This document shows positions 23,270 to 58,059 of a DNA stretch of 64,000 bases, in pieces. A model generated the notes under the pieces. The model made no database searches. It was given only the letters and a program-made list of their open reading frames with translations, and was not told where the DNA came from. Made by a program: the position numbers and the translations under genes. Each line of letters begins with the position of its first letter. Position 1 is the first letter of the stretch. The stretch is from Mobula hypostoma (lineage: Eukaryota): assembly GCF_963921235.1 (NCBI RefSeq), contig NC_086108.1:6448001-6512000 (forward strand). Direction: 5' to 3'.

Positions 23270-23726
23270 ATGGGCCGATTGACCAGCATCTTTGCATTCT
23301 CCCGATCTAAATTTCTGGCGGGTTGTAAATATCGGCGAGGCTTCAAGCCGGCAGTGTTTGCTCGTTCTGGTTTGGGACTGGGTGCCTTGGACAGGTTGCC
23401 CCACCCGCTCCATGACGTTGGACCTCTGTTGCTGGAGCCGCTCACTTCCCTGTTCCTGTATAAAGAAGGCAGCGGGTTTTTTTTACACCATGTACCCGTT
23501 GCCCTGGAGTGGTGGCGATCGGAGACCGGGCTTCTACGACAACAGCTCGGTGCTGTTGAGGAACGCCAATTTTCACCACAACCCCGCAGTCCCTAAACTT
23601 CCCCAGCCTCGTCCCGGCGCCGGGCTGTTCGAGGACCCGCACTTCCCCGCCGACAACTCGTCCCTGCACGGCCCGGGAGGAGCTTCTCGCTTCAACGTCG
23701 CTGTATCCAGCTGGAAGCGACCTCAG
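23270..23726 (+). promoter_or_regulatory. CpG-rich zone around the first calpain coding exon
   Basis: Visibly higher CpG and GC density than the flanking DNA. Confidence 0.5.
23490..23726 (+). CDS. Classical-type calpain, coding exon 1 (MYPLPWSGG...LFEDPHFPADNSSL...WKRPQ)
   Basis: accATG Kozak context; calpain motifs LFxDPxFPA and WKRP; donor CAG|gtaaag; 237 nt, phase 0; CpG-rich. The start codon is inferred because the frame stays open upstream. Confidence 0.88.
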
Positions 23727-23977
23727 GTAAAGACTGGGACAGGCTGGTGGGGGCTTGTCCATGAACGGAAGGGGGGATATCTTCGGGGGCATAATTTTAA
23801 TGTGATTGGGAGGAAAGTATGGGGGAGATGTCAGAGATAAGTTTTTTTTAACACAGTGAGGGTGGGCACTTTGAACGCACTGTACAGGTAGATACATTCG
23901 GGGCATTTCAGACTGCTCTAATGTTTTCTTTGTTGCATTGGGAACTGAGGGGAGATCTGATAAGTGTATAAATTAGA

Positions 23978-24430
23978 GTGGTACGGTGGTGTAGTGGTTA
24001 GCAAGACGCTTTACAGTACAAGCAACACACATCAAAGTTGCTGGTGAATGCAGCAGGCCAGGCAGCATCTCTAGGAAGAGGTGCAGTCGACGTTTCAGGC
24101 CGAGACCCTTCGTCAGGACGTCGACTGCACCTCTTCCTAGAGATGCTGCCTGGCCTGCTGCGTTCACCAGCAACTTTGATGTGTGTTGCTTGAATTTCCA
24201 GCATCTGCAGAATTCCTGTTGTTTGCTTTACAGTGCAGGTGACCTGGCTACCATTTGTACGTTCTCCCTGTGAGTTTCCTCCGAATGCTCCGGGTTTCCT
24301 CCGACAGTCCAAAGATGTACGGGTTAGTAGGTTAATTATAATATAACTAGGCTAGGATTAAGTTGGGGGCTGCCGGTTGGCACAGCTCAAAGGCCCGAAG
24401 GGACCTGTTACAAGCTGTATTTCCAAATAA
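23978..24430 (+). mobile_element. V-SINE/HE1-like SINE interrupted by a Penelope-derived hairpin
   Basis: Head gtggtacggtggtgtagtggttagc; SINE resumes at 24225. Confidence 0.75.
24021..24224. mobile_element. Penelope pLTR-derived fold-back insertion with a hammerhead motif in the loop
   Basis: About 70-bp near-perfect inverted arms; 13-bp TSD gctttacagtaca / gctttacagtgca; minus strand 24086-24119 reads gtc CTGACGA agggtctcggcct GAAA cgTC gac. Confidence 0.85.
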
Positions 24431-24639
24431 TGTTTTAAAATTAAAAATAATCTTGCACTTGCTTTTAGTACATATTTAATTGAAAGGAACAAGGTGAAGC
24501 CTCCGTTGGTCTGGGTCGACCATGAATGTTGCATCTAGCTGTCTGGACACACAGGCCTGGGCAGTACGATATGGAAAGCAAGCAGTGGCCCAAGCCCAAG
24601 CAGCAGGCGCCCCCTCTCCAGCATCTGATAAACCCAAAG

Positions 24640-27600
24640 CTAGACAAGGTGAGGAGGTCCTGAAGGAAGATTTTAGGGAGCTAGGTAGAAAGCTGAGAGA
24701 CAGGACCTGCAGGGTAGCAATCTCAGGATTGCTGCCTGTGCCACGTGCCAGTGAGGGTGATTTGGCAGGTGAATGCGCGGCTGAGGGACTGGTGCAAGGG
24801 AGCAGGGGTTCAGATTTATGGGTCATTAGGATCTCTTCTGGGGAAGGTATGACCTGTACAAAAGGAACGGGTAACACCTGAACCTGAGGGGGTCCAATAT
24901 CCTTGCAGGCAGGTTGGCCTGGGTTGTCTGGGTGCGTTTAAACTAATTCGGCTGGGGAAAGGGAACAGGAATGATAGTGCTGAGATGAGGTAGTTGGGTT
25001 ACAAACAGAGCCAATGTGTAGTGCGACTCCTAGCAAGGAGAGGCTGATAACAGGGCAAAATTGCAGTCAACAGGATGAGTTGCAGTGTAAAAGGTGGACA
25101 AAATCAGGACTGCAGATGTTATATTTGAATGCACGCCGTATACGGAATAAGGTAGATGAACTTGTAGCATAGTTACAGATCGGCATGTATGATATTGTAG
25201 GCATCACTGAATCATGGCTGAAAGATTATAGTCGGGAGCTTAATGTCGAAGAATTGTATTGAAAGGACAGACAGGAAGGCAGAAGGGGTGGTGTTGCTCT
25301 GTTGGTTAAAAAATGAAATCAAATCATTAGAAAGAGGTGACATATGGTCGGAAGGTGTTGAATAATTGTGGACGGAACTAAGGAACTGCAAGAGTAAAAA
25401 GACCCTGATGGGACTTGTATACAGATCCCCAAATAGTTGTGAGGATGTGGTCTACAAATTACAATAGCAGATAGAAAATGCACGCCAAAAGGGCAATGAT
25501 ACAATAGTCATGGGGGATTTCAATATGCAGGTAGATTGGGAGAATCAGGCTGGCGCTGGATTCCAGGAGGGGGAATTTCTAGAATGCCTACAAGACGGCT
25601 TTTTAGAGCAGCTTGTGGTCCAGTCCACCAGGGGATCTGCTATTCTGGATCAGGTGTTATGCAAGAATCTGGAATTGATAAGAGAGCTTAAGGTAAAAGA
25701 ACCCTTGGGGGGGGGGGGAGCAATCATATTATGATTAAATTTACCCTGAATTTTGAGAAGGAGCAGCTAAAGTCAGATATGCTACTATTACAGTGGAGTC
25801 AAGAGAATTATAGAGGCATGAGAGAGGTGTTGGCCAGAATTCATTGGAAAAGAACACTGGCAGGGATGACAGCAGAGCAGCAATGGCTGGAATTTCTGGA
25901 AACAATTGGGAAGGCACAGGATGTATACATCCCAAAGAGGAAGAAGTATTCTAAAGGAAGGATCACACAACTATAGTTAACAAGAGAAGTCAAAGCCAAC
26001 GTAAAAGCCAAAGAGAGGGCATTAAATAAGCAAAAATTAGTGGGAGTTTAGAGGATTGGGAAGTTTTCAAATGCCAACAGAAGGCAACTAAAAAAAAGTC
26101 ATTAAGAAGGTAAAGATGGAATATGAAAATAAGCTAACCAATAATATTAAAGAAGATTCCAAAAGTTTCTTCAGATACATAAAGTATAATGAGGAGGCGA
26201 GAGTGGATATTGGACCACTAGAAACTGATGGTAGAGAGATGCTAATGGGGGACAAGGAAACGGCAGACAAACTGAATATGTATTTTGCATCAGTCTTCAC
26301 TGTTGGAAGACACTAGGAGTATGGTGGAAGTTCCAAGTGTCGGAGGGCTTGATGTTTGTGAAGTTACCATAACTAGAGAGAAGGTTCTTGGCAAACAGAA
26401 AGGTCTGAAGGTAGATGAGTCACCTGGACCAGATGGTGTACACCCCAATGTTCTGAAAAAGGTGGCTGAAGAGATTGTGGAGGAATTAGTGATGATCCTT
26501 CAAGAATCACTAGATTCTGGAAGACTGGGAAACTGCAAATGTTCCTCCACTCTTCAAGAAGACAGAGAAATTATCGGCCAGTTAGTTTGACCTCAGTGGT
26601 TGGGAAGGTGTTGGAGTTGATTGTTAAGGATGTGGTTTCGGGGTACTTGGAGGCGCATGCTAAAATAGGCCTTAGTCAGCATGGTTTCCTCAAGGGAAAA
26701 TTTTGTCTGACAAATCTGTTGGAATTCTTTGAACTGACAGAAGAATCAGTTGATGTTGTGTGTCTGGATTTTCTGAAGGCCTTTGACAAGGTGCCACACA
26801 TGAAACTGCTTAACAATCTACGAGGCCATGATCTTACAGGGAAGATTCTAGCATGGATAAAGCAGTGACTGACTGGCAGGAGGTAGAGTGGGAATAAAGG
26901 GAGCCTTTTCTGGTTGGATACCAGTGACTAATGATGTTCCACAGAGGTCCGTGTTGGGACTGATCCTTTTTACATTATATATTAATGATTTGGATAATGG
27001 AATTACTGGCTTTGTTACAAAGTTTGTGGATGATACAAAGATAGGTGGAGAGGCAGGTAGTTTTGAGGAAGAAGAGATGCTACAGAAGGACTTGGAAAGA
27101 TTAGGAGAATGGCAAAGAAATGTCAGATGGAAAGCAGCGTCGGGAAGTGTATGGCCATGCACTTTGGTAGAAGAAATGAACAGGTTGACTATTTTCTACA
27201 TGGAGAGAAAATACAAAATCCGAGGCACAAAGGGACTTGAGAGTGCTTGTGGAGGATTCCCTAACGTTAATTTGCAGGTTGAGTCTGTTGTGAGGAAGGC
27301 AAATGCGATGTTAGTATTAATTTCAAGAGGACGAGAATATAAAAGCAAAGATGTAATGTTCAGACTCTATAAAGCACTGGTGAAGCCTCACTTGGACTAT
27401 TGAAAGCAGTTTTGGGCCCCTTATCTTAGAAGGGATGTGCTGAAACTGGAGAGGGTTCAAAGGAGGTTCACAAAAATGATTCCAGGTTTGAATGGCTTGT
27501 CATACGAGGAATGTCAGATAGCACTGGACCTGTATTCATTGGAATTCAGAAGAATGAGGGATGACCTCATTGAAACCTATTGAATGGTGAAAGGCTTTGA

Positions 27601-27860
27601 TGAAGTGGATGTGGAGAGGATGTTTCCTCTGGTGGGGAGAGTTTAGGGCCTGAAGGCACTGCCTCAGAATAGAGGAGTGTCCTTTTAGGACGGAGATGAG
27701 GAGGAATTTCTTTAACCAGAGAACGGTGAATCCGTGGAATCTTTGTCACGAGCATACATACAGACTTGGTATTTATATTTAAGGCAGAGACTGATAGATT
27801 CTTGATTGGTCAGGCACGAAGGGATGTGGGGAAAAGGCAAGATGTTGGGTCTGACAGCAG
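24640..27860 (+). mobile_element. CR1 LINE, long decayed copy (end of ORF1 plus ORF2)
   Basis: ORF1-like EDFRELGRKLRDRTCRVAISGLLPVP; ORF2 fragments MGDFN, SPGPDG, NYRPVSLTS, FVDDTK. Confidence 0.95.
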
Positions 27861-28409
27861 AAGTTTGAGATCACAGTTTTCCTTCTCCTAGATGAGCTGC
27901 CAACCATGGCCGACAAGCCCCATCTACCCGAAGCAACTGGTTTTAGGGTGCCAGTAACCCACCTTTGCCCCTTCTTCTGTCAGTAAAAATGGTTCCACTG
28001 GGTCTAGTAGCTGAACCACATGTGAAGGCCAGGAGCTGGACTCGGTTGTCAGAGGCTATTTGAGACATGCCATTGGGGACATTTAATAGGTAGTAGGAGC
28101 TTGTCGCAGTGACCATCAATGGGGAACTTATCCCAGTGACCATCCCTGGCCATGACAACCTAATGAACCAAGGTATAACTGCCAGCTTTTAGCAGTTTGG
28201 GAAGAGAAAGGAAGCTGTTGAACCTCTGGAACCTTAGCTGTTCTGTGATGTGTTTCATGTCCTCTGATACACTTGTTCATCAGATTCAGAATTACCAAAT
28301 GTTCCAGCATTAATTACTGTCTGCTGAGTGAAGACCACTCCAAGCTGCTGCCAAGTCAGTGTTCCCTGACTTCACTCTGTTTCACTTGTTGTGCCTGTGT
28401 GAGATATTA

Positions 28410-29410
28410 ACCATCAGACCATGAGAGATAGGAGCAGAAATGGGCCATTTGGCAAATTGAGTCTGATCCGCCATTCCAGCATGGCTGATTTATTATCCCT
28501 CTCAATCCCATTCTCCTGCCTCCTTTCCCAAAATCATTCTCATGAACATCCTCTGGACCCTCTCCAATGTCAGCACCATCCTTTCTCAGATAAGGAGCCT
28601 AAAACTGCTCACAGTACTCCAAGTGAGGACTCATCATTAAGTCCTTGCTTTTGTATTCTAGTCCTCCCGAAATGAATGCATTCACCTTTCTCACCATCAA
28701 CTCAACCTCCAAGTTAACCTTTAGGGAATCCTACACAAGGGCTTCCAAGTCCCTTTGCACCTCCGATTTTGAGTTTTCTGCCCATTTAGAAAATAGTCTG
28801 TGCTTTGCTTCCTCCCACCAAAGTGCATTGGCATACATTTCCCGTCACTGTTATCCAGCTGCCACTTCCCTGCAGTCTCCCCACTTCCTCAACACTACCT
28901 GCCCCTCCACCTATCTTCATATCATCTGAAAACTTGGTCACAAATCCATCAATTCCATCATCAAAATCATTGATATATAAAGTAAAAAGAAGCAGTCCAT
29001 ATCCCCAGTGGAACACCACTAGTCACCAGCACCAATCAGAGAAGGCTTCCTTTATTCCCCCTCTTTGCTCCCTGAAAACAGCTACTGCCCTATCCGTGCT
29101 AGAATCTTTCTTGTGATGCACTGGGCTCTTAGCTCATTCAGCAGCCTCATGTGTGGCACCTTGTCAGAGGCCTTCTGAAAGTCCAAGTACACAACATCAA
29201 CTAATTCTCCTTTGTCTATCCTGCTTGTTATTTTCTTAAAGGATTCCAACAGATTTTTCAGGCAAGGTTTTCAGTTAAGGAAACCATGCTGACTTTGGCT
29301 ATTTTATCATGTGCTTCCAAGTATCCTGAGACCTCATCCTTCACAATGAACTCCAACATCTTCCCAGCCACTGTCATGAGCTGACTGGTCTATCAATTCC
29401 TTTCTTCTGC
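28410..29410 (-). mobile_element. CR1 LINE fragments
   Basis: ORF 28786 YINDFDDGIDGFVTKFSDD and CR1 tail. Confidence 0.85.
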
Positions 29411-32400
29411 CCCTTGTTGGAATTCTTTGAGGAGATTACAAGTAGAATAGATAAAGGGTATGCAGTGGATGTTATATATTTGGATTTTCAGAAGGCTTTT
29501 GACAAGGAGGCTGCTTAAGACCCATGGTATTACAGGAAAGTTACTGGCATGGTTAGAGCATTGGCTGATTCGTAGGAGGCAGTGAGTGGGAAAAAAGGGA
29601 TCCTTTTCTGGTTGGCTACCAGTGACTAGTGGTGTTCTGCAGTGAAACATAGAAACAGAAAACCTACAGCATAATACAGGCCCTTCAGCCCACAATGCAG
29701 TGCCGAACATTTACTTACTTAAAAATTACCTAAGGATACCCATAGCCCTCTATTTTTCTAAGCTCCATGTACCTATCCAGGAGCCTCTTAAAAGACCCTA
29801 TTGTATCCGCCTCCACCACCATCGCTGGCAGTCCATTCCACGCATTCACCACTCTCTGCGTTTTTAAAAAAAACTTACCCCTAATATCTCCTCTGTACCT
29901 GCTTCCAAGCAGCTTAAAATTGTGCCCTCTCACGCTATTCACTTCAGCCCTGGGAAAAAGCCTCTGACTATCCACACAATCAGTGCCTCTCATCATCTTA
30001 TACACCTCGGTCAGGTCACCTCTCATCCTCCGCCACTCCGAGGAGAAAAGGCCGAGTTCACTCAACCTATTCTCATAAGGCATGCTCCCCAATCCAGGCA
30101 ATATCCTTGTAAATCTCCTCTGCACCCTTTCTATAGTTTCCACATCCTTCCTGTAGTGAGGTGACCAGAACTGAACACAGTATTCCCAGTGGGGCCTGAC
30201 CAGGGTCCTATACAGCTGTAACATTACCTCTTGGTGCTTAAACTCAATCCCATTGATGAAGGCCAATGCACCGTATGCCTTCTTAACCACAGATTCAACC
30301 AGTGCAGCAGCTTTGAGTGGCCAATGGACTCGGACCCCACGATCCCTCTGATCCTCCACACTGCCAAGAGTCTTACCATTAATACTATGTTCTGCCATCA
30401 TATTTGACCTACCAAAGTGAACCACCTCACAATTATCTGTGTTGAACTCCATCTGCCATTTCTCAGCTCAGTTTTGCATCCTATCAATGTCCCGCTGTAA
30501 TCTCTGACAGCCCTCCACACAATCCACACCTCCAACCTCTGTGTCATCAGCAAATGTACTAACCTATCCCTCCACTTCCTCATTCAGGTCATTTATAGAA
30601 ATCACAAAGAGTAGGGGTCCTAGAGAAGATCACTGAGGCACACCACTGGTCACCGACCTCCATGCAGAATATGACCCCTCTACAACCACACTTTGCCTTC
30701 TGTGGGCAAGCCAGTTCTGGATCCTCAAAGCAATGTCTCCTTGGATCCCATGCCTCCTTACTTTCTCAATAAGCCTTGCATGGGGTACCTTATCAAATGC
30801 CTTGCTGAAATCCATATACACTACATCTACTGCTCTTCTTTCAGCAATGTGTTTAGTCACATGCTCAAAAAATTCAATCAGGCTCGTAAGGCACGACCTG
30901 CCCTTGGCAAAGCCATGCTGACTATTCCTGATCAAATTATACCTCTCCAAATGTTCATAAATCCTGTCTCTCAGGATCTTCTCCATCAACTTACCAACCA
31001 CTGAGGTAAGACTCACTGGTCTATAATTTCCTGGGCTATCTCTACTCCCTTTCTTGAATAGGGGAACAACACCTGAAGCCCTCCAATCCTGCGGAACCTC
31101 TCCTGTCCTCATTGATGATGCAAAGATCATCGCCAGAGGCTCAGCAATCTCCTCCCTCGCCTCCCACAGTAGCCTGGGATACATCTTCTCCAGTTCCAGT
31201 GACTTATTCAATTTGGTGCTTTCCAAAAGCTCCAGCACATCCTCTTTCTTAATATCTATATGCTCAAGCTTTTCAATTGTCTGTAAGTCATCCTTGCAAT
31301 CGCCAAGATCCTTTTCCATAGTGAATACCGAAGCAAAGTATTCATTAAGTACCTCTGCTATCTCCTCCAGTTCCATACACACTTTCCCACTGTCACACTT
31401 GATTGGTCCTATTCTCTCACGTCTTATCCTCTTGCTCTTCACGTACTTGTAGAATGCCTTGGTGGTTTCCTTAATCCTGCTTGCCAAGTCCTTCTCATGG
31501 CTCCTTCTGACTCTTTTAATTTCATTCTTAAGCTTCTTCTGCTAGCTTTATGATCTTCTAGATCTCTATCATTATCTAGTTTTTTTGAACTTTTCGTAAG
31601 CTTTTCTTTTCTTTTCTTCTTGACTAGATTTTCAACAGCCTTTGTACACCACGGTTCCTGTACCCTACCATTCTTTCCCTGTCTCATTGGAAAGTATCTA
31701 TGCAGAACTCCATGCAAATATCCCCTGAACATTTGCCACATTTCTGCTGTATGTTACCCTGAGAACATCTGTCCGAATTTATGCTTCCATGTTTCTGCCT
31801 GATAACTTCATATTTTCCCTTACTTCAATTAAACACTTCCCTAACTTGTCTGTTCCTATCCCTCTCCAATGCTATGGTAAAGGAGAAAGAATTGTGATCA
31901 CTAACTCCAAAAGAGAGACCTGACACCTGACCAGGTTCATTTCCCAATACCAGACCAAGTACAGCCTCTCCTCTTATAGGCTTATCTGCATATTGTGTTA
32001 GGAATCTTCCCGAACACACTTAACAAACCCCTTGCTTTAGGGAGATGCAAATCAATATTTGGGAAATTAAAATCTCCCACCACGACAACCCTGTTATTAT
32101 TACACCTTTCCAGAATCTGTCTCCCTATCTGCTGCCCGATGTCCCTGTTACTATTGGGTGGTCTGTTAAAAAAACACCCTGTGGAGTTATTGACCCCTTC
32201 CTGTTTCTAACTTCCACCCACAGAGACTCAGCAGGCAACTCCTCCATGACTTCCTCCTTTTCTGTAGCCGTGACACTATCTCTGATCAGTAGTGCCACGC
32301 CCCCACCTCGGTGTTTGGTTGGTGTTGGGACCGCTTCTTTTTATGCTGTATGTCAATAATTTAGATGATGGAATAGATGGCTTTGTTGCCAAGTTTGCAG

Positions 32401-32790
32401 ATGATAGGAAGATTGGTGAAGGGGCAGGTAGTGTTGAGGAAACAGGAAGGCTGCAGAAGGACCTGGACAGGAGAATGGGCAAGAAAGTGGCAAATAAAAT
32501 ACAATGTTGGAAAATGCACGGTCATGCACTTTGGTAGTAGAAATAAACATGCAGACTGTTTTCTAAATGGGGAGAAAATCCAAAAATCTGAGATGCATAG
32601 GGACTTGGGAGTCCTTGTGCAGAACACCCTAAAGATTAACTTGCAGGTTGAGTTGGTGGTGAGGAAGGCAAATACAATGTTAGCATTCATTTCAAGGGGT
32701 CTAGAATACAAGAGTAAAGATGGGATGCTGAGGCTTTATAAGCCGCACCTTGATTATTGTGAACAGTTTTGGGCTTCTTATCTAAGAAAA
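29411..32790 (+). mobile_element. CR1 RT fragment (29411-29642 and about 32315-32790) split by an antisense CR1
   Basis: ...VTSGVLQ stops at 29642 and VLGPLLFMLYVNNLDDGIDGFVAKFADD resumes near 32320. Confidence 0.8.
29645..32308 (-). mobile_element. CR1 LINE (second subfamily), endonuclease through RT and tail
   Basis: ORFs 30630 (285 aa) and 29730 (240 aa); gaaacatagaaac tail. Confidence 0.95.
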
Positions 32791-37027: not shown

Positions 37028-37029
37028 CA

Positions 37030-41629: not shown

Positions 41630-41699
41630 GAAATCTGTGCCAGGCCTCAGTTTGTGGTTGATGGGACCACCAGAGCTGACATCTGCCAGGGAGCCTTGG
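41630..41699 (+). CDS. Calpain coding exon 2 ([24 protein letters not shown])
   Basis: Acceptor cttccacag, 70 nt, donor gtgaga; DICQGALG motif; not in the ORF track in this frame. Confidence 0.95.
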
Positions 41700-44649: not shown

Positions 44650-45430
44650 AGCACACAACGTCCAGCCAAGCTGGTCACTCTACCCTACATCAAGAACGTA
44701 TCAGAAATGACCAACAGATTTCTACGACCATTTGCCATCACAGTAGCACACAAACCTGCAGCCACACTACGCCAATGTTTATCAAGAATAAAAGACCCCC
44801 TACCTACAATGTAAAGAACAAACACCATATACAAAATTCCATGCGCCAACTGCCGCAATATTTATATTGGACAGACTGGTAGGAAGCTATCAACAAGGGT
44901 ACATGAACACCAACTGGTTGTAAACTGTCATGATCAACTTTCCCTATATCTATATATTGTGACAGCGAAGCACATGAATTCGACTGGACCAATGTCACTA
45001 TCCTGGGCCAAGCCCGTCAACAACAAGCCCAAGAATTCTTAGAGGCTTTGTTCTGTACACAGAATTTTATCAACAAGCACGTTTACATCCCACTTCAGTG
45101 TCAAGTCATCAGTCCAGAGCCAAGAGCCGATTCACACCTGATTACACGCGTCAATCAATGAGGATGACGTTAGTCCTGAATAACGGTCGACTGACTCAGC
45201 CTGGACATCAATTATGACCTAATCCGATTTTAATGAACCAATCGCAGATTACATAATCTGTACCCAATAGAAATGGCAAGCATACCCACACCCCCCCCCC
45301 CACACACCACAGGACACATAAAAGACAAACAATATAGATCATCAACATTTCATTGGAAGTTGCACTGATGATGTTGCCTAGCTGGGTAATGAAACATCTG
45401 CAAGCTAACAAGCTAGCTGGGTGAGCCACT
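44650..45430 (+). mobile_element. Penelope/Poseidon-type element 3' part (GIY-YIG remnant plus hammerhead motif)
   Basis: LPYIKNVSE...VAHKP...IKDP...IYKIPCANCRNIYIGQTGRKLSTRVHEH; hammerhead-like motif at 45361-45402. Confidence 0.85.
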
Positions 45431-46260
45431 CAACAACAACATTATCGAAGCATGTATTCAGTATACAACCCTGAGATTCGTCTTCTCACAGACAGCCACA
45501 AAACAAAGAAAACCATGGAACCCATTCAAAAAAAACATCAAATTCCCAACGTGCAAAAAAAAAGAACAAATTGTGCAAACGACAAAAAAGAGTGAAACAC
45601 ACAGAGTATAAAACATCAAACCACATCGAAACAGTCTGGGATTGTTCAGTTCAGCTTAAGGTGGCGCATTTTCTATTTTTGTTAAAGCTGCTGCCTTTTT
45701 GGTCGAGGTAGTTCCGAATCACATGTCTAGAGACTGAGCTGAGCGAGGTATTTAGGTCACTGCTGTGTTTCTGTGCAGTGTGTTACGACATATTTTGGAA
45801 TGAGGGTATATAGCAAGTATTAATTTCACCAGCAACCAATCTTCAGACATGAACATGGATTGTAGATTAAATCTAAAGTGCAGCCCTGAACTATAATCTT
45901 CCTGGAGCTGTCGTCTGGAGTTGATTGCAAACCAGACAATGCTGATTAACAATCATTTTTGGTGTCTGGAGTGTGGGTGTGAAGACTATATGTGATTCAA
46001 AGGAAGCATTGTAGATAACGTTGTAACTCTAGAATTGTCTTGCTGTTAACTTTGAAGTTTAACATGTAAAATGTCATGTAATATTGGGTTGCGATATAAA
46101 ATGGTGTCTCAATATCATTTCTGCTGCTCTTTTTGTTGGATAAAGCACGTCTGTATCCACTAGCTTCAGTGTTTCTCCAGTGACTTTGTACCCGTCACAG
46201 CAGTGTGTACAAAGCTCTGTACATCTTCTGATCATTAACGCAAACCCATCTTGTTGCCAG

Positions 46261-46379
46261 GCGACTGCTGGCTCCTGTCTGTCATCACTTGCCTCAGTCT
46301 CAACAAGGATGTCATGAAACAGGTGATCCCACCAAACCAGGGATTCGGGACCGGTTACTCAGGGTGTTTCCGCTTTAAG
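46261..46379 (+). CDS. Calpain coding exon 3 with catalytic Cys (DCWLLSVITCLSLNKDVMKQVIPPNQGFGTGYSGCFRFK)
   Basis: Acceptor gttgccag, 119 nt, donor gtatgt; completes QGALGDCW. Confidence 0.95.
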
Positions 46380-46739
46380 GTATGTCCTGGTCGTCCATGT
46401 CCTTTTGCTATCTGTAAGGGGTTTGTACATTCGCCCTGCAATCATGTGGGTTTCCTTCAAGTACACCAATTGGTAGGTTAATTGGTCATTATAAATTGTC
46501 CTGTGATTCGGCCAGGGTTAACTTTGGGGGATCGCTGGGTGGTGTGGCTGGAATGGTCTCAATTTTTAAAAAAAGAGAAAGAAACAGTGGCCACCAGTGA
46601 TTCGTAATTGGCTTGTTTTTGTCATGTGTACCAAGGTACAGTGAAGAGTACTTTTTACATGCCGTCCAGGGTCAGATCATACCAAATACAAGTACTTTGT
46701 CAATACAAAAGTCAAAACTATAACAGAAAGAAGAAGCAT

Positions 46740-47190
46740 ACACACACAAAATGCTGGAGGAACTCAGCAGGTCAGGCAGCATCGATGGGAATGAATAACA
46801 GTGAACATTTCGGGCTGAGACCCTCCTTCAGCACTGAGAAGGAAGGGGGGGGGGGAGACGGCAGAATAAAAAGCTGGAGAGGGGAAGGAGGATAGCTGGA
46901 AGGTGATAGGTGAAGCCAGGTGGGTGGGAAAGGTAAAGGGTGGAGGAGGAGGAATCGGATAGGAGAGAAGAGTGGAGCATAGGGGAAAAGGAAGGAGGAG
47001 GTAACCTAGGGGGACGTGATGGGCAGGTGAGAAGAGGCAAGAGGGCAGAGTGGGGAACAGAGGAGGAGGGGAAGATGGTGGGGGGAGTAACTTGGTTCAC
47101 TGGAAGGAAAAATTGATATTCATGCCATCAGGTTGGAGGCTACCCAGATGGAATATAAAGTCTTGCTCCTCCACCCTGAGGGTGGCCTCA
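46740..47190 (-). mobile_element. Penelope-like element 3' fragment
   Basis: Reverse complement of LQPDGMNI plus a purine-rich pLTR. Confidence 0.75.
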
Positions 47191-47232
47191 CCCGATAATC
47201 TATTCTGTACCTGACAATAGTTAATTTATGCA

Positions 47233-48927
47233 ACACACATAAAAGTCGCTGGTGAACCAGGCCAGGCAGCATCTCTAGGAAGAGGTACTGTTGACGTTTT
47301 GGGCCGAGACCCTTCGTCAGGACTAACTGAAAGAAGAGCTAGTAAGAGATTTGAAAGTGGGAGGGGGAGGGGGAGATCCGAAATGATAGGAGAAGACAGG
47401 AGGGGGAGGGATGGAGCCAAGAGCTGGACAGGTGATTGGCAAAAGGGATATGAGAGGATCATGGGACAGGAGGCCTAGGGACAGGGTGAGAAGAGGAATA
47501 GTCCAGATAGCTGTAAGAGTCAGTAGGCTTATATTAGACATCAGTAGATAAGCTGTCTCCAGAGATAGAGACAGAAAGGGGAGGGAGGTGTCAGAAATGG
47601 ACCAGGTAAACTTGAGGGCAGGGTGAAAGTTGGAGGCAAAGTTAATGAAGTCAACGAGCTGTCTCTTATAAAAATGCCATCCCCTTCTTTCAATTCCTCC
47701 GTCTCCGCCACATCTGCTGTCAGGATGAGGCTTTTCATTCCAGGACGAGGGAGGTGTCTTCCTTTTTTGAAGAAAGCGGCTTCCCTTTCTCTACCATCAA
47801 CTCTGCTGTCAAACGCATCTCCCCCATTTCATGCACATCTGCTCTCACTCCACCCTCCCGCCACCCCACTAGGAATAGGGTTCCCCTTGTCCTCACCTAC
47901 CACCCCACCAGCCTCCGGGTCCAACATATAATTCTCCGTAACTTCCGCCACCTCCAACGGGATCCCACCGCTAAGCACATCTTTCCCTCCCCCCTCCTCT
48001 GCTTTCCGCAGGGATCGCTCCCTACGTGACTCCCTTGCCCAGTCATTCCCCCCCATCCCTCCCCACTGATCTCCCTCCTGGCGCTTATCCTTGTAAGCGG
48101 AACAAGTGCTACACATACCCTTACACTTCCTCCCTTACTACCATTCAGGGCCCCAAACAGTCCTTCCAGGTGAGGCGACACTTCACCTGTGAGTCGGCTG
48201 GGGTGATATACTGCATCCGGTGCTCCCGATGTGGCCTTTTATATATTGGCAAGACCCGACGCAGACTGGGAGATCATTTTGCTGAACACCTACGCTCTGT
48301 CCGCCAGAGAAAGCAGGATCTCCCAGTGGCCACACATTTTAATTCCACGTCCCATTCCCATTCTGATATGTCTATCCATGGCCTCCTCTACTGTAACGAT
48401 GAAGCCACACTCAGGTTGGAGGAACAACACCTTATATTCCGTCTGGATAGCCTCCAACCTGATGGCATGAACATTGACTTCTCAAACTTCTGCTAATGCC
48501 CCACCTCCCCCTCGTACCCCATCCGTTATTTATTTTTATACACACATTCTTTCTCTCACTCTCCTCTTTCTCCCTCTGTCCCTCTCACTATACCCCTTGC
48601 CCATCCTCTGGGTTCCTCCCCCACCTTTCTTTCTCCCTGAGCCTCCTGTCCCATGATCCTCTCATATCCCTTTTGCCCATCAACTGTCCAGCTCTTGGCT
48701 CCATCCCTCCCCCTCCTGTCTTCTCCTATCATTTTGGATCTCCCCCTCCCCCTCCAACTTTCAAACTCTTACTAACTCTTCTTTCAGTTAGTCCTGACGA
48801 AGGGTCTCGGCCCGAAACGTCGACTGTACCTCTTCCTAGAGATGCTGCCTGGCCTGCTGTGTTCACCAGCAATTTTTTATGTATGTTGCTTGAAATTCCA
48901 GCATCTGCAGAATTCCTGATGCTTGCA
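47233..48927 (+). mobile_element. Penelope-like (Neptune-type) element with inverted pLTR, GIY-YIG remnant and hammerhead motif
   Basis: ORF 48026 with Cys-rich linker PCKRNKC and GVIYCIRCSRCGLLYIGKTRRRL; 47233-47480 is the reverse complement of about 48640-48890; 14-bp TSD agttaatttatgca at 47219 and 48928. Confidence 0.9.
48790..48825 (+). ncRNA. Minimal hammerhead ribozyme motif
   Basis: agtc CTGACGA a ggg tctcgg ccc GAAA cg TC gact: stem I agtc/gact, stem II ggg/ccc, palindromic acgt stem III. Confidence 0.7.
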
Positions 48928-50326
48928 AGTTAATTTATGCACTTTACTTTGTTTATTTATGCATAATTCATCTGTAAATTTTTATCCTTGCTTTCCTAAC
49001 TTGCACTACACCTTGGTTTGGAGTGGTCTCGTTTGACGATATACATGTATATAGTTAAATGACGGTAAACTTGCCTTGATTTGAAAGGGGAAGAAAGTAA
49101 ACTTTTGAAACATCAGAGAATTGAGTTGAATTGGCAGAGAAGAGGAATTGTACTGTGTTGTAATATCAACTAGACTGTCAGCCAAACTCCATTCAAAAAT
49201 AACAGAGTCTGGGTACGGCCTCCTAGCTCCTTGGTTTGTTATCCCTCTCCACACCTTGTGGCACATCAGCTGGCCATCTTGCCGTTTCCTTAACGTTTTA
49301 TCTTTTTTTATGAAGCTGGGTTGTTAGCTCGACGCTGAACCTAGCCCGGATGGAAACTGTGCAAGGAGCCGGCCGGATTTGAACCCAGATCTACTTGCCT
49401 TGGAGTCTGGGGCTGATGCCACCACACCACCTTCCGGCTACAGTGAGCAGGGAGTGAAACTGCAAAACAACAAAATACAGTGTAATCACTGCGTTGTTCC
49501 TTTCACACAGATAAATGTACACAGATAAGTAATGACTTAGCCAAGTTTTCTGCAGGTGAATATTATAAGATTCTGACAAGTAAATACTGCAGGTAAATAC
49601 TTGTGTAAGTCATTTGCATCTAGGTGAGTGCCTAAAAGAACTCAAAATTAACATTCTATTTCAGCAAAATATTATTGATACCTTCTGATTTATTTCTAAA
49701 CAATATAACATCGACTTACAAGCAATGCTTTTGTTAGGGAAATAATAGGATGGCTTTAGATAGTAACTACTTTTGCTCCTAACATAAATCTCTGGCATTT
49801 TACCAGCCAATGTGCCTTCCTACTCACTACTTCCTGACTGCACCGGAAGTGACCTAATACAGATCTGAAACTGCTCATTTCAAAATAAAAGCTGAACGTG
49901 CTTAATTATATGATTTAAAAAAAAAACAAACTTAAATCAATCGCCTGAAGGACAGAACAGGAGGTGAGGCCTGGGGCAGATCATCTGTGATCACATTGAA
50001 TTGTGGGGTTGGTTTGAGGGGCCAAGTGGTCTATTCTTGTTGCTATCTTTTCCAGGAGGTTGTGGGTTGGAGTTCCGTCCCAGACACAAAAGTTTGGCTT
50101 ATGTCTCCCCACCCCCCCCCCAACTTCCTTTCCCGTCCCTACGAAGGCTCTCAGCCCAAAACGCGAGTTGTTTATTCCCCACCATAGATGCTGCCTGACC
50201 TGCTGAGTTCCTTCAGTATTTTGTGTGTATTGATTTAGGTTAACGCTGCTGAGTTGTTTGAAGAGAAAATTGCCCTGGTTTGCTGCTGATAATCTAACGT
50301 TTGATATTGCCTTTTATTTCCACAAG

Positions 50327-50460
50327 TTCTGGCAGTATGGGCAGTGGGTCGAAGTGATAGTTGATGACCGATTGCCCACCATTGACAACAAGCTGGCATT
50401 TCTCTACTCCAGGAACAACAATGAGTTCTGGAGCCCTCTCCTGGAGAAGGCCTATGCCAA
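50327..50460 (+). CDS. Calpain coding exon 4 ([18 protein letters not shown]...[14 protein letters not shown])
   Basis: Acceptor tttccacaag, 134 nt, donor gtaagg; hallmark motifs VDDRLP and [13 protein letters not shown]. Confidence 0.97.
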
Positions 50461-50672
50461 GTAAGGACCTGCTGAGTGTTTCACCGTGACTGAGCGTCCA
50501 CAGTAACGGTCTGTGAGTAGCTTGAGTTACCAGACATAAGACCCTTAGACATAGGAGTAGATTCAGGCCAATCAACCTATTGTGTCTATTTTGCCTTCTC
50601 CCCATAACCTTAGACATCCTAATTAAGAGCCAACCAACCTGTGTGTGTCTATATTAAATAAAACACGCGCGT

Positions 50673-50673
<1 letters not shown>

Positions 50674-50705
<32 letters not shown>
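50674..50705. repeat. (CA)16 microsatellite
   Basis: Direct reading. Confidence 0.95.
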
Positions 50706-50708
<3 letters not shown>

Positions 50709-51141
50709 CGCCTAAGACTTCTGCACAGTACTATATGTGTCAACGTGGGGAAGAGAGCGAGTTTATAAATCTAGCAGGAGCAAAGGGTGTTGGGAATGGC
50801 AAGGGTGGAGCACCACGGGGGTCGGGGGGGGGTGTGGTGGTGGTGTGGGTGCAGACACACCCAGCCCTGAGGCACCAGGCAAGGTCATTTACTTGCAAAC
50901 AATTGGTTTATTGATCATTACAGAATGTCTCTCTGGTGTTTCCTGCTCCCTCCCCTCTGCCCCCTTCCCACTCTCAGTCTATAATAGAGACCCATACAGA
51001 ATCAGGTTTGTCATCACTCACATATGTATGAATTTTACTTTTTCTTTTGCAACAGCAGCACACTGCAATAATTAAAATTACTACAGTACCGTGCAAAAGT
51101 CTTGGGCACCCGAGCGCTATATATCTATCTATCTATCTGTG

Positions 51142-51222
51142 CCTAAGAACACATATATATGCCTAAGACCACATATATAGATATATATATACCTAAGACC
51201 ACATATATAGATATATATATAT
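51142..51222. repeat. Short tandem duplication, 30-bp unit cctaagaccacatatatagatatatatata
   Basis: Two full copies plus a partial copy, derived from the end of the Tc1-like hairpin. Confidence 0.85.
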
Positions 51223-51394
51223 GGCCTCCACACCCATCTGTGACAATGAATTTCACAGATTCCCCCCCCCCCCCCGGTTTTGTTGGAGCTGGAGTGTTTG
51301 GCATAGCGGTGGGACCAAGGCAGTGGACGTTGGGTGGTTGGTGCTTTGGGCTGTGTCCCAGTTAACCAAGGCCTTCCATTCTCTCATTGCACAG

Positions 51395-51563
51395 GCTGAA
51401 GGGGTGCTATGAGTCGCTGTACATCGGTTACCCTCTGGAAGCCATGGTCGATCTCACTGGTGGAGCCCCTGAATCCCTTCAGATTGACGAGATGCCCAAG
51501 GACCTTTGGAAATTCTTGAAGAAACTCCTGGACAAAGGCTCCATAGTTTGCTGTGCAAAGCCG
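51395..51563 (+). CDS. Calpain coding exon 5 (LKGCYESLYIGYPLEAMVDLTGG...KGSIVCCAKP)
   Basis: Acceptor attgcacag, 169 nt, donor gtaaat; GxYExL and DLTGG motifs. Confidence 0.95.
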
Positions 51564-51689
51564 GTAAATAGAAACGGCATTCAGGAAATAATAGCCGTGT
51601 TTTCATCTGGAGGGTGCTGTTGGATCTCTGTTTATTTTCTGAGCCTTGGGGTCCTTCCGGGAGTCAGGAATAGTGAGCAGTGTTAATTC

Positions 51690-52000
51690 CAAGATTCCAG
51701 GGAGTCTTGCGAGACCATGGATCTGCACCTGAAAAGTCTTCACTCTCCAGGGCGCAGGCCTGGGCAAGGTTGTATGGAAGACCAGCAGTTGCCCATGCTG
51801 CAAATCTCCCCTCTCCATGACACCAATGTTGTCCAAGGGAAGGGCATTAGGACCCATACAGCTTGGCACCGGTGTCGTCGCAGAGCAATGTGTGATTAAG
51901 TGCCTTGCTCAAGGACACAACACGCTGCCTTGGCTGGGGTTCGAACTCACGACCTTCAGGTCGCTAGTCCAATGCCTTAACCACTTGGCCACATGCCCAC
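51690..52000 (-). mobile_element. tRNA-derived CORE-type SINE
   Basis: Minus strand: gtggccaagtggttaagg (A box), gagttcgaacc (B box), gtgtccttgagcaaggcactt (CORE-like). Confidence 0.7.
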
Positions 52001-52119
52001 ACAAGTACCGAGTAAACTAAATAAAGAGCTGAGAAACTATGCTCTGAGGGGACAAGGGAATAAAGAAACCAAGACGGTGCCTCTGAAAATCCGTCACTTT
52101 TATAGATAAGATATTCCTT

Positions 52120-52680
52120 AGATAGAGATAAACTAGATAGGCACTTTATTGATCCCAAAGGAAATTACAGTGTCACTGTAGCATTACAAGTGCACAGCTA
52201 TAAATATTAGAAGAGAACTAGAAAGAATAAAAAAAAGTTACCACAAACAGTCTAACAGGAGGGGTCATCACTTCCCCGGCTACAGGTTGACTCATTATAG
52301 ACCCTAATGGCTGAGGGTAAGAATGACCTCGTTTAGCACTCTTTGGAGCAGCACGGTTATCTTAGACTATTACTGGAATTGTTCATCAGCTCAGCCAAGG
52401 TGGCATACAGAGAGTGAGAAACATTGTCCAAAATTGTCAGGATTTTCCGTAGGGTCCTTTGTTCTACCACAGCCTCCAATGTGTCCAGTTTGGCTCCTAT
52501 AACAGAGCCAGCCTTTCTAATCAATTTATTGACCCTGTTGCTGTCACCCATATTGATGCCATTGCCCCAGCACACCACCGCTTAGAAGATTGTAGTGGCG
52601 ACAACAGACTGGTAGAACATGTGAAGGAGGGGCCTGCATACTCTAAAGGACCTCAGTCACCTCAGGAAGTAGAGGCGACT
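52120..52680 (-). mobile_element. Rex/Babar-like LINE 3' fragment
   Basis: ORF 52357 VCWG...VNKLIRKAGSVIG...DNVSHSL. Confidence 0.8.
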
Positions 52681-52764
52681 AGTGAATAGGCTGCATAATT
52701 AAAACAATTACATCACACGGGTACTGTGCTAATACTTAGCCAATAAGAAATGACAGAGTTGATA

Positions 52765-53145
52765 AGACCATAAGACATGGGAGCAGAATGAAGCCATTTG
52801 GCCCATTGAGTCTCCTCCATCATTTTTCCTCTCGGCTCCAATCTCTTGCCTTCTCCCCACATCCCTTCATGCCCTGACCAATCAAGAATCTGTCAACCGC
52901 TGCCTTAAGTATACATACAGACTTGGCCTCCACAGCTGTCTGTGCCAACGAATTCCACAGATTCACCACTCTCTGGCTAAAGAAATTCCTCCTCATCCCC
53001 TTTCTAAAAGGACAAGTCTCTACTCTGAGGCTGTGCCCTCTGGTCTTAGACTCTCCCACCACAGGAAACATCCTGTCCACATTCACTCTGTTTGTTGAGG
53101 CTTTTCACCATTCAGTAGGTTTCAATGAGGTCACCACTCATTCAT
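52765..53145 (-). mobile_element. CR1 3' fragment
   Basis: ORF 52820. Confidence 0.9.
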
Positions 53146-53954
53146 CTGACTTCCTGTGAGCCTGAAGACACACACTCAACATTTCAGAAACAGCTTCTAC
53201 CTCTTGTCCATCAGATTTCTGAACAGTTCATGAACCCATGAACACTACTTCACTATTTTTGTTGTCTTTTTGCATTACCTACTTATCAATAGCAACACAC
53301 ACAAAATGCTGGAGTAACTCAGCAGGTCAGGCATCATCTGTGGAAAAGAGTAAGCTGTCAGTGTTTCTGCTGAGACCCTTCTTCAGTCCTGAAACGACAA
53401 CTGTTTACTTCTTTCCGTAGCCGGTACTTGAGCTGCTGAGTTCCTCCAGCATTTTTTGTGTGTTGCTTTAGGTTTCCAGCGTCTCCGGGCTGCTTCTCGG
53501 GTAGAATATTGGCACAGTAGTCTGCGTTACCATTCATTCTTTGGAGTTTTATCTTCTATTTTGAGGATGTCTGTGAAGAGTAAGACTGTCAGGTTGTATA
53601 CTGTGTACATTCTCTGATATTAAATGGAACCATTGACCCATTGTCATTAGAAAGGATGACAATAATATTAATGGACAGGAGTGGACTCGATAGTGTGGGG
53701 GAGGAGGGAGTGCGAGAAAGATGGGGGGACAGATTGGCACCTAGAACTCACTACAAGGGTAAGTGTTATTTGCAAATTTGATAGCAACACTGGCAGTTAG
53801 CGTAATGCTTTACAGTACCAGTGACCCAGTTTCAATTCTCACTGCTGTTTGTGAGGAGTTTCTATGTTCTCCTGGTGACTGCATGGATTTCCCCTGGATG
53901 CTCTGGGTTCTTCCCACATTCCCGAGATGTACCGGTTAATAGGTTAATGGGTCA

Positions 53955-54510
53955 TCTGGAGTATGGTGTGCAGTTTTGGTCACCAAATTTGAGGAAGGAC
54001 ATTCTTGCTATGGAGGGAGTGCAGCGTAGGTTCACTGGGTTAATTCCAGGGATGGCGGGAATGTCATATATTGGAAGATTGGAGCGACTGGGCTTGTATA
54101 CACTGGAATTTAGAAGGATGAGAGAGGATCTCATTGAAACACACAAGATTATTAAGAGATTGGACACGCTAGAGGCAGGAAACATGTTCCCGATGTTGGG
54201 GGAGTCCAGAACCAGAGGCCACAGTTTAAGAATAAGGGGTAGACCGTTTAGAACGGAGTTGAGGAAAAACTTTTTCACACAGAGGGTTGTGGATCTGTGG
54301 AATGCTCTGCCTCAGAGGGCAGTGGAGGCCGATTCTCTGGATGCTTTCAAGAAAGAATTAGATAGAGCTCTTAAAGATAGCAGAGTCAAGGGATGTGGGG
54401 AGAAGGCGAGAACAGGGTACTGATTGTGGATGATCAGCCATGATCACAGTGAATGGCGGTGCTGGGTCGAAGGGCCGAATGGCCTACTCCTGCACCTATT
54501 GTCTATTGTC
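53955..54510 (+). mobile_element. CR1 3' fragment inserted into a V-SINE (about 53780-54590)
   Basis: HLEYGVQFWSP...NFFTQRVV; SINE halves on both sides. Confidence 0.9.
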
Positions 54511-54894
54511 ACATGGATGGAATTGGGTGACGTGAGCTCGTTGGGCCGGAGGGGCCTGTTCCATGCTGTATCTCTAAATAAATAAACTTAGGCCAAAAAA
54601 AACTGCAGATTTTCTTGTGTTTGTTATTTATTAATATTTCTTACTACATCTGATAGTGTAGTTTTTTTGTGATTGAACTGTAGTCCTGCCACAAAACAAT
54701 AAATTTTACAGTGTATTTTCAGTTGTTGTAAACCTATTCCTGATTTTGATTCTGGATTTGGTGAAATAGACAACTCTTCAGTGCCAGCAACCTCGGGATG
54801 AGCTTCGAGGAATACAAGTGTAAAGTATTTTAAAAATTTACAAGAGTATTATAATCCGATAAGTAACATGTAATCCTCCTTGTTCTCTGCACAG

Positions 54895-54966
54895 GGTCCA
54901 GTGGGAGTATTAGGTGAACAAGGCATTGTAACTGGACATGCGTACTCCGTGACTGGTGTTGACAAG
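54895..54966 (+). CDS. Calpain coding exon 6 with catalytic His (GPVGVLGEQGIVTGHAYSVTGVDK)
   Basis: Acceptor ctctgcacag, 72 nt, donor gtgagc; GHAYSVTG motif. Confidence 0.95.
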
Positions 54967-55169
54967 GTGAGCTATGGCTGTTATGTGAAGCAGTGGTGTG
55001 TGACCCCTCTCGGGTTTCTCTGCAGTTTGTACTGCTGGCTGATGGAATGATAGGTGACCTTCTCAGAGCCTCGGTAAACCTCCAGCTCAGCCAGACATCC
55101 TGTGAAATAACTCTTCCTCTCACTGTGCTTCCTTCAGGTTGTCATAGCCTTAGAAAGGGGCGTGGGTAA

Positions 55170-55875
55170 TAGTCATAGTCATACTTTATTGATCCCGGGG
55201 GAAATTGGTTTTCATTACAGTTGCACCATAAATAATTAAATACTAATATGTAAATTATGCCAGGAAATAAGTCCAGGACCAGCCTATTGGCTCAGGGTGT
55301 CTGACCCTCCAAGGGAGGAGTTGTAAGGTTTGATGGCCACAGGCAGGAATGACTTCCTATGACGCTCCGTGTTGCATCTCGGTGGAATGAGTCTCTGGCT
55401 GAATGTACTCCTGTGCCCAACCAGTACATTATGTAGTGGATGGGAGACATTGTCCAAGATGGCATGCAACTTGGACAGCATCCTCTTTTCAGACACCACC
55501 GTCAGAGAGTCCAGTTCCATCCTCACCACATCACTGGCCTTACGAAAGAGTTTGTTGATTCTGTTGATGTCTGCTACCCTCAGCCTGCTGCCCCAGCACA
55601 CAACAGCAAACATGATCGCACTGGCCACCACAGACTCATAGAACATCCTCAGCATCGTCCGGCAGATGTTAAAGGACCTCAGTCTCCTCAGGAAATAGAG
55701 TCGGCTCTGACCCTTCTTGTAGACAGCTTCAGTGTTCTTTGACCAGTCCAGTTTATTGTCAATTTGTATCCCCAGGTATTTGTGATCCTCCACCATGTCC
55801 ACACTGACCCCCTGGATGGAAACAGGGGTCACCGGTGCCTTAGCCCTCCTCAGGTTTACCACCAGCTCCTTAGTC
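55170..55875 (-). mobile_element. Rex/Babar-like LINE 3' part
   Basis: ORF 55284 KTKELVV...KYLG...QSRLYFLRRLRSF; (gactat)n tail. Confidence 0.85.
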
Positions 55876-56274
55876 TTAGTAATGGGGACAAACTCCCACT
55901 CCCAATGGCATTCATGTGAAATGGCCTCTGACAACCAAGTCCAGCTCCTGGCCTTCACGTGTAGTTTAGCTACAAAGTCTGGCACAACTGTTTCTACTGA
56001 CAGGAGAAGGGTAACACGCACAAAATGCTAGTGGAGCTCAGCAGGTCAGGCAGCATACGGGGAAAGGAATAAACAGTCGGCGTATGGGGCAGAGATGCTT
56101 CGCTTCCTCCCCACTGAATTTATCCCTCACCGAGGTCTCCCACGTGCTTCCTAAAGTGGAAGTGCCTGTTCTTTAGTCAGTGCCAATTTCGAGATTTGCC
56201 TGCTCTTGGCCTGTTGAAAGTGTGTGAGGTGTCCAGAGTCTTGGTGATCACTTTTATTTTTGTGGATTTCCCAG

Positions 56275-56360
56275 GTTCAACTCAAGACAAGCGGAGTGGA
56301 GTTGGTGCGAGTTCGCAACCCGTGGGGGAGAGGGGAGTGGAGCGGTGCCTGGAGCGATGG
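56275..56360 (+). CDS. Calpain coding exon 7 with catalytic Asn (VQLKTSGVELVRVRNPWGRGEWSGAWSDG)
   Basis: Acceptor atttcccag, 86 nt, donor gtaagg; RNPWG and EWxGAWSD motifs. Confidence 0.96.
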
Positions 56361-56489
56361 GTAAGGGGAGAGGGAGATCTGGTCAGAGGATTTCACCCCT
56401 AAATTCTTATTCCTCTGCATAGATGCTCTTTGACCTACTGAGTTCATCAGGCATGTTCAAGTTCAAATTTAATTGTCGTTCCACCATAC

Positions 56490-57220
56490 ATTTTTCCACT
56501 GAGGTTGGGTGGGACTGCAACCAGAGGGCATGGGTTAACGGTGAAAGATGAAAATGTTAAGGGGAAACTTCTTCACTCAGAGGGTGGTGAGAATGTGGAC
56601 CGAGCTGACAGCACAAGTGTGCCAGGTGAGCTTGAGCTCGATTTCAATGCTTAAGAGAAGTTTGGATAGGTACCTGGATTTGAGGGATATGTACTCCGCC
56701 TCCACACGCCGACTCCTGTTGTAGACGGCAATATGATCTGTAACAAATCACAGAAAAGTACAGCATAGAAACAGGCCATTTGGCCCATCTAGTCCATGCT
56801 GAACCGTTTAAAATGCCTAGTCCCATCAACCTGCACCGGGACCATAGCCTTCCATATCCCTCCCATCCATGTACCTATCCAAACTTCTCTTAAATGTTGA
56901 AATTGAGCTCGCATGGAGCACACTCTCACGGTCCTGTGAGTGAAGAAGTTGCCTCTCATGTTCCCCTTAAACTATTCACCTTTCACCCTTAACCCATGAC
57001 ACCTACTTGTAGTTCTACCCAACCTCAATGTAAAAAGCCTATCTATATCCCTCATAATTCTGTATACCTATATCAAATCTCCTCTCAGCCTTCCATGTGC
57101 TAAAGGATACAGTCCCAACCTATTCAAACTTCCCATATAACTCAAGTCCTCCAGACCTGGCAACATCCTTGTCAATTTTCTCTGTACTCTTTCAACCTTA
57201 TTTGTGTCTTTCCTGTAGTC
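56490..57220. mobile_element. Two opposed CR1 3' fragments
   Basis: ttcttcactcagagggtggtg on + at about 56570; reverse-complement CR1 3' end at 56745-57220. Confidence 0.75.
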
Positions 57221-57987
57221 CTGCTCCTCCCCTATTGATCAGCTTGCTAGTGGGGTAGACCAGATGTACTAATTTGCAGAAAAAAAGACGTCACGGACGA
57301 ACAATTATACCTACCTTTGGAGCCAGAGAGGCCACTGTCACCATGCGCATCGCCATCTTACCGGAAGTGGTAAGATCTTACCGTGCGTTACCCTGGATTT
57401 CCACGCCAAGGTTTTATGCGTTGTTTCAATCTCTGGGTGGGGAATATCTAGGTGCTAGTGTAGTGTGAGGTATACCATTCTCCTCCTCTCCACAACGCTT
57501 CCACTTCCCGTTTTCTAGTTGCCACACGGGATCACTGAGCGTTCCAGGTGGCGCTCCCTGCATTTTCAATGTGCTCGCAGGATCAGAATCAGGTTTAATA
57601 TCACCGGCATATCTCGTGAGATTTATTGTTATGCAGCAGAGTAATAAAAATTGTAAATTACAGTAAGAAGTATACATTTTAAAGTTAAATTAAGTAAGTA
57701 GCGCAAAAATAGAAATTTAAAAAGTAGTGAGGTAGTGTTCATGGATTCATTGTCCATTTAGAAATCAGATGGCATAGAGGAAGAAGCTGTTCCTGAATCA
57801 TTGAGTGTGTGCCTTCAGGCTTCCTGATGGTAGAAATGAGCAGAGGGCATGTCCTGGGTGATGGGGGTGCTTAATGATGGAAGCTGACATTTTTGAAGCA
57901 TCACTTCTTGAAGATATCCTGCATGCTGGGGCTCTCACCATTATATTCTGAGCGTGAAGATTTTAGATCACTTCTGTCTCTCTGCAG

Positions 57988-58059
57988 GTCTGCAGAGTGG
58001 AGCCAGGTCTCAGAACAACACCGTCCCCTGAAGGTACACTTGGAAGATGGAGAGTTTTG
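57988..58059 (+). CDS. Calpain coding exon 8 (SAEWSQVSEQHRPLKVHLEDGEFW); gene continues beyond the window
   Basis: Acceptor ctctctgcag, 72 nt, donor gtaaga; EDGEFW motif. Confidence 0.94.

Follow-up and report, generated by a model that had tools for sequence, protein, structure and literature searches.

The calpain gene beside EIF3K in the ray Mobula hypostoma is very probably the elasmobranch orthologue of CAPN17

Which calpain is encoded downstream of EIF3K in Mobula hypostoma? The window analysed here is a stretch of 64,000 nt (positions 6,448,001 to 6,512,000 of the forward strand of contig NC_086108.1, assembly GCF_963921235.1). In the human genome the order is EIF3K-ACTN4-CAPN12. A preliminary description, made from the sequence without database searches, had recognised eight exons of a divergent calpain in the window, and proposed that the gene was not CAPN12 and might be either CAPN17 or an undescribed relative. 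CAPN17, known from fish and amphibians, has received little study. The accessible text of Macqueen and Wilcox 2014 (PMC4043111) defines it as a clade of lamprey, amphibian and ray-finned sequences that amniotes have lost, and reports sharks and chimaeras as having neither CAPN17 nor CAPN12 representation. We conclude, with a probability of about 0.93, that these exons make up the 5′ half of an intact elasmobranch CAPN17 orthologue, a classical calpain of about 700 aa; the figure covers jointly the intactness of a gene whose front half lies in the window and its orthology to CAPN17.

EIF3K was expected upstream on the same strand and was found there, with four exons between 4532 and 16838 and its stop codon at 16836-16838; one of these exons matches eIF3K chains at E 8e-17. 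The features of the locus are as follows.

4532-4598, 10600-10677, 16563-16688 and 16807-16838, plus strand: last four exons of EIF3K, the neighbouring gene
22800..24200, no strand assigned: CpG-rich stretch spanning the likely promoter and exon 1
23490..23726 (237 nt from the ATG), plus strand: coding part of exon 1, aa 1-79, with the start Met, a Pro-rich N-terminal arm and the beginning of the protease core
41630..41699 (70 nt), plus strand: exon 2, with Arg94, Asp96 (putative Ca2+ site 1 position) and oxyanion Gln99
46261..46379 (119 nt), plus strand: exon 3, with catalytic Cys105
50327..50460 (134 nt), plus strand: exon 4, with Glu175 (putative Ca2+ site 1 position) and the EKAYAK motif
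51395..51563 (169 nt), plus strand: exon 5, with the CAPN17 signature Gly198-Tyr199-Pro200 and Ala203
54895..54966 (72 nt), plus strand: exon 6, with catalytic His258 and a loop that has 4 residues fewer than its chicken calpain-2 counterpart
56275..56360 (86 nt), plus strand: exon 7, with catalytic Asn282, Trp284, and Glu288 and Asp295 (putative Ca2+ site 2 positions)
57988..58059 (72 nt), plus strand: exon 8, the last in the window, with Asp316 and Glu318 (putative Ca2+ site 2 positions)

The eight calpain exons splice in frame as originally described, with GT-AG introns throughout, into 959 nt (319 codons) containing no stop; with corrected boundaries, all seven internal acceptors end in AG and all eight donors begin with GT. 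Introns inside the window range from 934 to 17,903 nt. In a six-frame motif search of the window the calpain motifs appeared in order on the plus strand, and seven short calpain motifs gave seven occurrences, against zero to one in each of 30 base shuffles. The spliced translation retains the catalytic residues Cys105, His258 and Asn282 and, together with the motif search, bears out the acidic calpain motifs reported earlier. The start motif at 23490 is common to all eight elasmobranch rows of the alignment. The RefSeq models of Hypanus and M. birostris begin further upstream, and the 73-residue N-terminal extension of the latter was rejected, as the eight aligned elasmobranch proteins have a start matching 23490.

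The surroundings are rich in repeats: sequence recurring elsewhere in the window accounts for at least 57% of the gene span and for none of the eight exons. Eight of 12 long open reading frames scanned had a Pfam match, seven of them to reverse transcriptase, endonuclease, GIY-YIG or hAT domains. At 22800..24200 the CpG observed/expected ratio is 0.73-0.83 in five successive 400-nt segments, and 0.34 over the whole window; this stretch is likely to contain the CAPN17 promoter, a role suggested by sequence. A TATAAA lies at 23459, 31 nt upstream of the conserved start codon, and if used it would leave next to no 5′ UTR. A hAT-type DNA transposon of 2.6 kb (20504-23102; 14-bp terminal inverted repeats, target-site duplication matching at 7/8), with its transposase on the minus strand and broken across several frames, stops 388 bp upstream of the CAPN17 start codon. 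Within an EIF3K intron, a short broken reading frame at about 1150-1320 of the plus strand presumably resembles a fragment of a hAT or ZNF862-type transposase. Intron 3 of the calpain gene carries a GIY-YIG endonuclease fragment (47975-48493; Pfam E 3.5e-4, below the cut-off), likely from a Penelope-type retroelement.

A tblastn search of the last 5.9 kb of the window (58060-64000) found no later calpain exon, and so the gene continues past the window end. The 319 residues are identical (319/319) to residues 1-319 of three RefSeq-predicted M. hypostoma calpain-9-like isoforms (XP_062919628-30), which have the same start and differ from our reading in name alone, since the gene is not CAPN9. 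The initial characterisation of the gene as hidden was therefore too strong, because RefSeq already predicts its protein. In the 700-aa RefSeq isoform, Peptidase_C2, Calpain_III and EF-hand_6 scored above the Pfam cut-offs; the CysPc protease core carries the Cys-His-Asn triad by which a classical calpain is recognised, and it is followed by C2-like and penta-EF-hand domains, whose exons fall outside the window. An AlphaFold model of this isoform (mean pLDDT 78; residues 1-43 of low confidence) had full-length m-calpain as its best structural match (E 2e-64), with TM scores of 0.65-0.79 among the top eight.

These data bear on the possibility that M. hypostoma has a mere pseudogene here, or a gene truncated to its core. 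No exon occurs within 5.9 kb after the eighth and no junction read was seen, the RNA result being swamped by repeats. Against this, the 959 nt contain no stop or frameshift, the splice sites are canonical and the 5′ end is CpG-rich; intron 1 alone measures 17.9 kb. Because a complete 700-aa model with an identical first 319 residues exists, decay or truncation of the gene is extremely improbable.

Orthologues of the intact gene are widespread in elasmobranchs. With exon 5 as query, 10 full-length elasmobranch proteins were retrieved among 18 candidates at 86-98% identity, and the exon 5 matches together with their cluster members gave orthologues in 21 named species of shark, ray and skate. 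The window protein is 73-99% identical to its orthologues, reaching 99.4% over 319 aa in M. birostris. All three catalytic motifs were present in 18 of 20 proteins checked, the remaining two being fragments without the core. A Logan contig of 1,501 nt encodes 380 continuous residues from the C-terminal half of an orthologue in the skate cluster, consistent with a spliced mRNA. When four of 24 listed RNA runs were compared with the window at 85% likeness, repeats swamped the result and every contig obtained derived from them; none of the 15 joints listed, with 6,542 more beyond these, coincided with an exon junction, an outcome that weighs neither way on expression.

To place the gene, the calpain phylogeny proposed in the preliminary description was carried out as three trees: 56 rows including the 319 aa of the window under LG+G4; the same 56 rows under a mixture model with a quick search; and a careful bootstrapped tree of 34 of the 56 rows, with M. 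birostris substituting for the window. The sampling was without CAPN11 and without shark CAPN1, 2, 9 or 13. In all three trees the elasmobranch clade was sister to bony-vertebrate CAPN17, with lamprey CAPN17 basal, and stood outside CAPN12, CAPN9 and CAPN3. The union of elasmobranch and bony CAPN17 received an SH-aLRT of 100 in the 56-row trees and 100/100 in the 34-row tree; the basal position of lamprey CAPN17 received 98 (LG+G4), 97 (mixture model) and 100/99 (34 rows). CAPN12, CAPN13 and CAPN17 formed one deep group (99/99, 34-row tree).

The order within the CAPN17 clade agrees with the species tree, including the lamprey, amphibian and ray-finned sequences of PMC4043111. As far as the accessible part of that paper goes, our gar sequence P0027 matches, by eye, the gar entry of its CAPN17 taxon list, and lamprey P0126 agrees with its lamprey sequence in cleft motif and species. 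With the signature masked, three lamprey sequences best match CAPN2 or CAPN9 anchors, so that their placement depends on the tree alone. Because the clade follows the species tree, an undescribed relative is superfluous, and of the two identities first proposed it is CAPN17 that stands.

The nearest alternative by position is that the gene is the elasmobranch orthologue of CAPN12, lying near EIF3K as human CAPN12 does. Human CAPN12 is a neighbour of EIF3K, and so is the window gene; furthermore, a frog member of CAPN17 is named calpain-12 at NCBI, and the accessible supplement of PMC4043111 gives CAPN17 genes as 'CAPN12' under Ensembl-derived labels. However, AU tests (LG+G4, 34 of the 56 rows, groups picked after the first tree had been seen) rejected a grouping of the CAPN17 elasmobranchs with tetrapod CAPN12 (p 5e-5) and with fish-type CAPN12 (p 9e-53), in line with the original view that this is not CAPN12. 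Moreover, a CAPN12-type gene distinct from CAPN17 is present in the same shark and ray species, the two being 33% identical in the bamboo shark. CAPN12 identity, rejected under LG+G4, is thus very unlikely.

Database names suggest instead that the gene is CAPN9 or CAPN3: NCBI calls the orthologues calpain-9(-like) or calpain-3(-like), and the best solved-structure matches of exon 5 are calpain-3 and calpain-9. Yet both identities were rejected by AU tests on the tree without shark CAPN9, at p 1e-66 for CAPN9 (two CAPN9 rows only) and p 1e-83 for CAPN3, and Mobula has its own, separate CAPN3, which matches the shark orthologue that served as query at 45% identity. These names are almost certainly not the identity of the gene, and the shark and ray gene is a further member of the known CAPN17 family, mislabelled calpain-9 or calpain-3 in databases.

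A subtler alternative is hidden paralogy, in which the gene would be an elasmobranch-specific paralogue of CAPN17 whose true orthologue was lost or unsampled. A long stem branch (0.30-0.33) and just 44-50% identity with bony CAPN17 are what hidden paralogy might predict. Nevertheless, the topology agrees with the species tree, and the best 120 of 6,801 matches included no second CAPN17-like gene from an elasmobranch. In 13 of 17 species compared, sharks and bony vertebrates alike, the record that carries CAPN17 is exactly as long as the one that carries fish-type CAPN12 (the exceptions being two Mobula species, Hemitrygon and Polypterus). Hidden paralogy is accordingly improbable, and direct orthology to CAPN17 is preferred. 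Chimaera, lungfish, coelacanth and amniote CAPN17 were likewise not seen among those best 120 matches, which is no proof of absence. In the literature searched, which left most subscription journals outside, we found no earlier report of elasmobranch CAPN17; searches there on shark or cartilaginous-fish calpains and CAPN12 gave nothing beyond PMC4043111, and none joined eif3k, actn4, capn12 and synteny in one paper. A further match for CAPN17 was PMC5650170, whose accessible part includes a species table.

Equal record length is taken here to indicate the same chromosome. All nine species of shark, skate and sawfish in the comparison have fish-type CAPN12 on the record of CAPN17, mostly one of 12-50 Mb; in the two Mobula species and Hemitrygon (P0411/P0307, P0001/P0449, P0414/P0306) the genes are on different large records. 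This pattern is suggestive of fission or fusion of a small chromosome among the relatives of stingrays.

The sequences called CAPN12 did not form one group. In all three trees salamander and caecilian sequences grouped with shark and ray-finned 'CAPN12', and the frog sequence, represented by aa 1-700 of a fused model of 1,040 aa, with amniote CAPN12. AU tests rejected forcing the amphibian 'CAPN12' sequences together (p 4e-53) or with amniote CAPN12 (p 3e-6). They did not reject the two CAPN12 types as sister groups (p 0.13), nor a grouping of CAPN17 with fish-type CAPN12 (p 0.43). The split involves proteins P0312, P0313, P0014, P0135, P0141, P0274 and P0321, and suggests that 'CAPN12' may comprise two paralogues, one of shark, ray-finned, salamander and caecilian type and one of frog and amniote type, so far with both in no single species. 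A matching three-group pattern is treated as a branching error in the accessible text of PMC4043111. Separately, hagfish P0129, named calpain-1-like, grouped with CAPN13/14 (100/98, 34-row tree); the accessible text of PMC4043111 has no lamprey CAPN13.

Comparison with known calpains was consistent in fold and divergent in detail. The modelled ray protein appears to share its fold and domain order with calpain-2 (m-calpain; PDB 3bow, 1kfu), and its numbering is the same to about residue 240. It is 40% identical to chicken calpain-2, with which it agrees at the triad, Gln99 and Arg94, at the Trp that follows Asn and at each of the six acidic positions of the core. These six, Asp96/Glu175 and Glu288/Asp295/Asp316/Glu318, we take to be the acidic positions of the two core Ca2+ sites. 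As aligned, EF-hands 1 and 3 appear intact, whereas loop positions 3 and 12 of EF-hand 2 are no longer acidic. Also unlike calpain-2, the ray protein has Gly-Tyr-Pro in place of Gly-Thr-Thr, a loop before His that is 4 residues shorter, and no N-terminal helix. This helix before the core is absent from all 16 jawed-vertebrate CAPN17 rows, and present in lamprey and in seven other paralogue rows.

With bony and lamprey CAPN17 the elasmobranch protein shares G-[FY]-P at 198-200, Ala203 and the same C-terminal motifs, and with bony CAPN17 the missing helix. It differs from bony CAPN17 in having Gly before the catalytic His, where eight bony rows have Lys, Arg, Gln or His, and from gar CAPN17 in a canonical EF-hand 3 that scores above the Pfam cut-off, the gar one falling below. 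CAPN12 of tetrapod and fish type, although in the same deep group and, for the fish type, often on the same chromosome record, shares 33-38% identity.

The G-[FY]-P cleft signature is a marker devised in this analysis, not taken from PMC4043111. It occurred in 85 of 365 calpain proteins with a readable motif (449 collected), and with the motif masked 82 of the 85 best matched CAPN17 anchors, the other three being lamprey; six further CAPN17-like proteins lack it. The S2 wall of papain is Gly-Tyr-Pro, to which the CAPN17 motif may be likened. In calpain-1, Gly208 and Thr210 correspond to residues of this motif, and a docking study lists both within the inhibitor pocket (PMC6272800, accessible part). 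For Ala203, the accessible text of PMC7610153 describes Gly203/Ala213 as governing core stability in rat calpains and links Ala203, with qualification, to the stable isolated core of rat calpain-1. According to the same text its pig calpain-1 and human calpain-2 differ although each carries Gly at 203/213, which weakens the prediction from Ala203.

How might the enzyme work? In classical calpains, Ca2+ at two core sites assembles the active site, and the protease makes limited cuts in cytosolic proteins. By analogy the window protein is most likely a Ca2+-activated cysteine protease that clips its substrates, and a Ca2+-switched cytosolic protease making limited cuts is the best reading because the triad, the acidic core positions and EF-hands 1 and 3 are kept. 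Ca2+ would bind the two core sites, whose acidic positions are all retained, as well as EF-hands 1 and 3, and would align Cys105-His258-Asn282 for limited cleavage of cytosolic proteins. The substrate cleft may be reshaped by Tyr199-Pro200, which replace small residues, by Ala241, which replaces Ser, and by the shortened loop ahead of His258, and the reshaped cleft could confer a cleavage preference unlike that of calpain-1/2. With Ala203 the core should stay active in isolation, and loss of the N-terminal helix may alter how the inactive state is held. We infer these effects of the cleft motif, short loop, Ala203 and missing helix from sequence comparison.

Taken together, the results alter no general principle, and the protein sequence was already public as calpain-9 or calpain-3. 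They fill a gap stated in the accessible text of PMC4043111, as CAPN17 and CAPN12 both occur in elasmobranchs and the database names are wrong. A broader interpretation, which we offer tentatively and hold somewhat short of even odds, is that CAPN17 has a specificity and a regulation of its own among calpains: the Gly-Tyr/Phe-Pro cleft wall, kept from lamprey to newts, would give a substrate preference unlike calpain-1/2, the helix would have been lost in jawed vertebrates, and the shark and ray enzyme would be the best-preserved form. Because 'CAPN12' would on this interpretation cover two ancient paralogues, the CAPN12/17 region would once have contained three calpains, a single one of which survives in amniotes. 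Elasmobranch CAPN17, slowly evolving and well conserved, is a candidate for the first biochemistry on a calpain that amniotes have lost.
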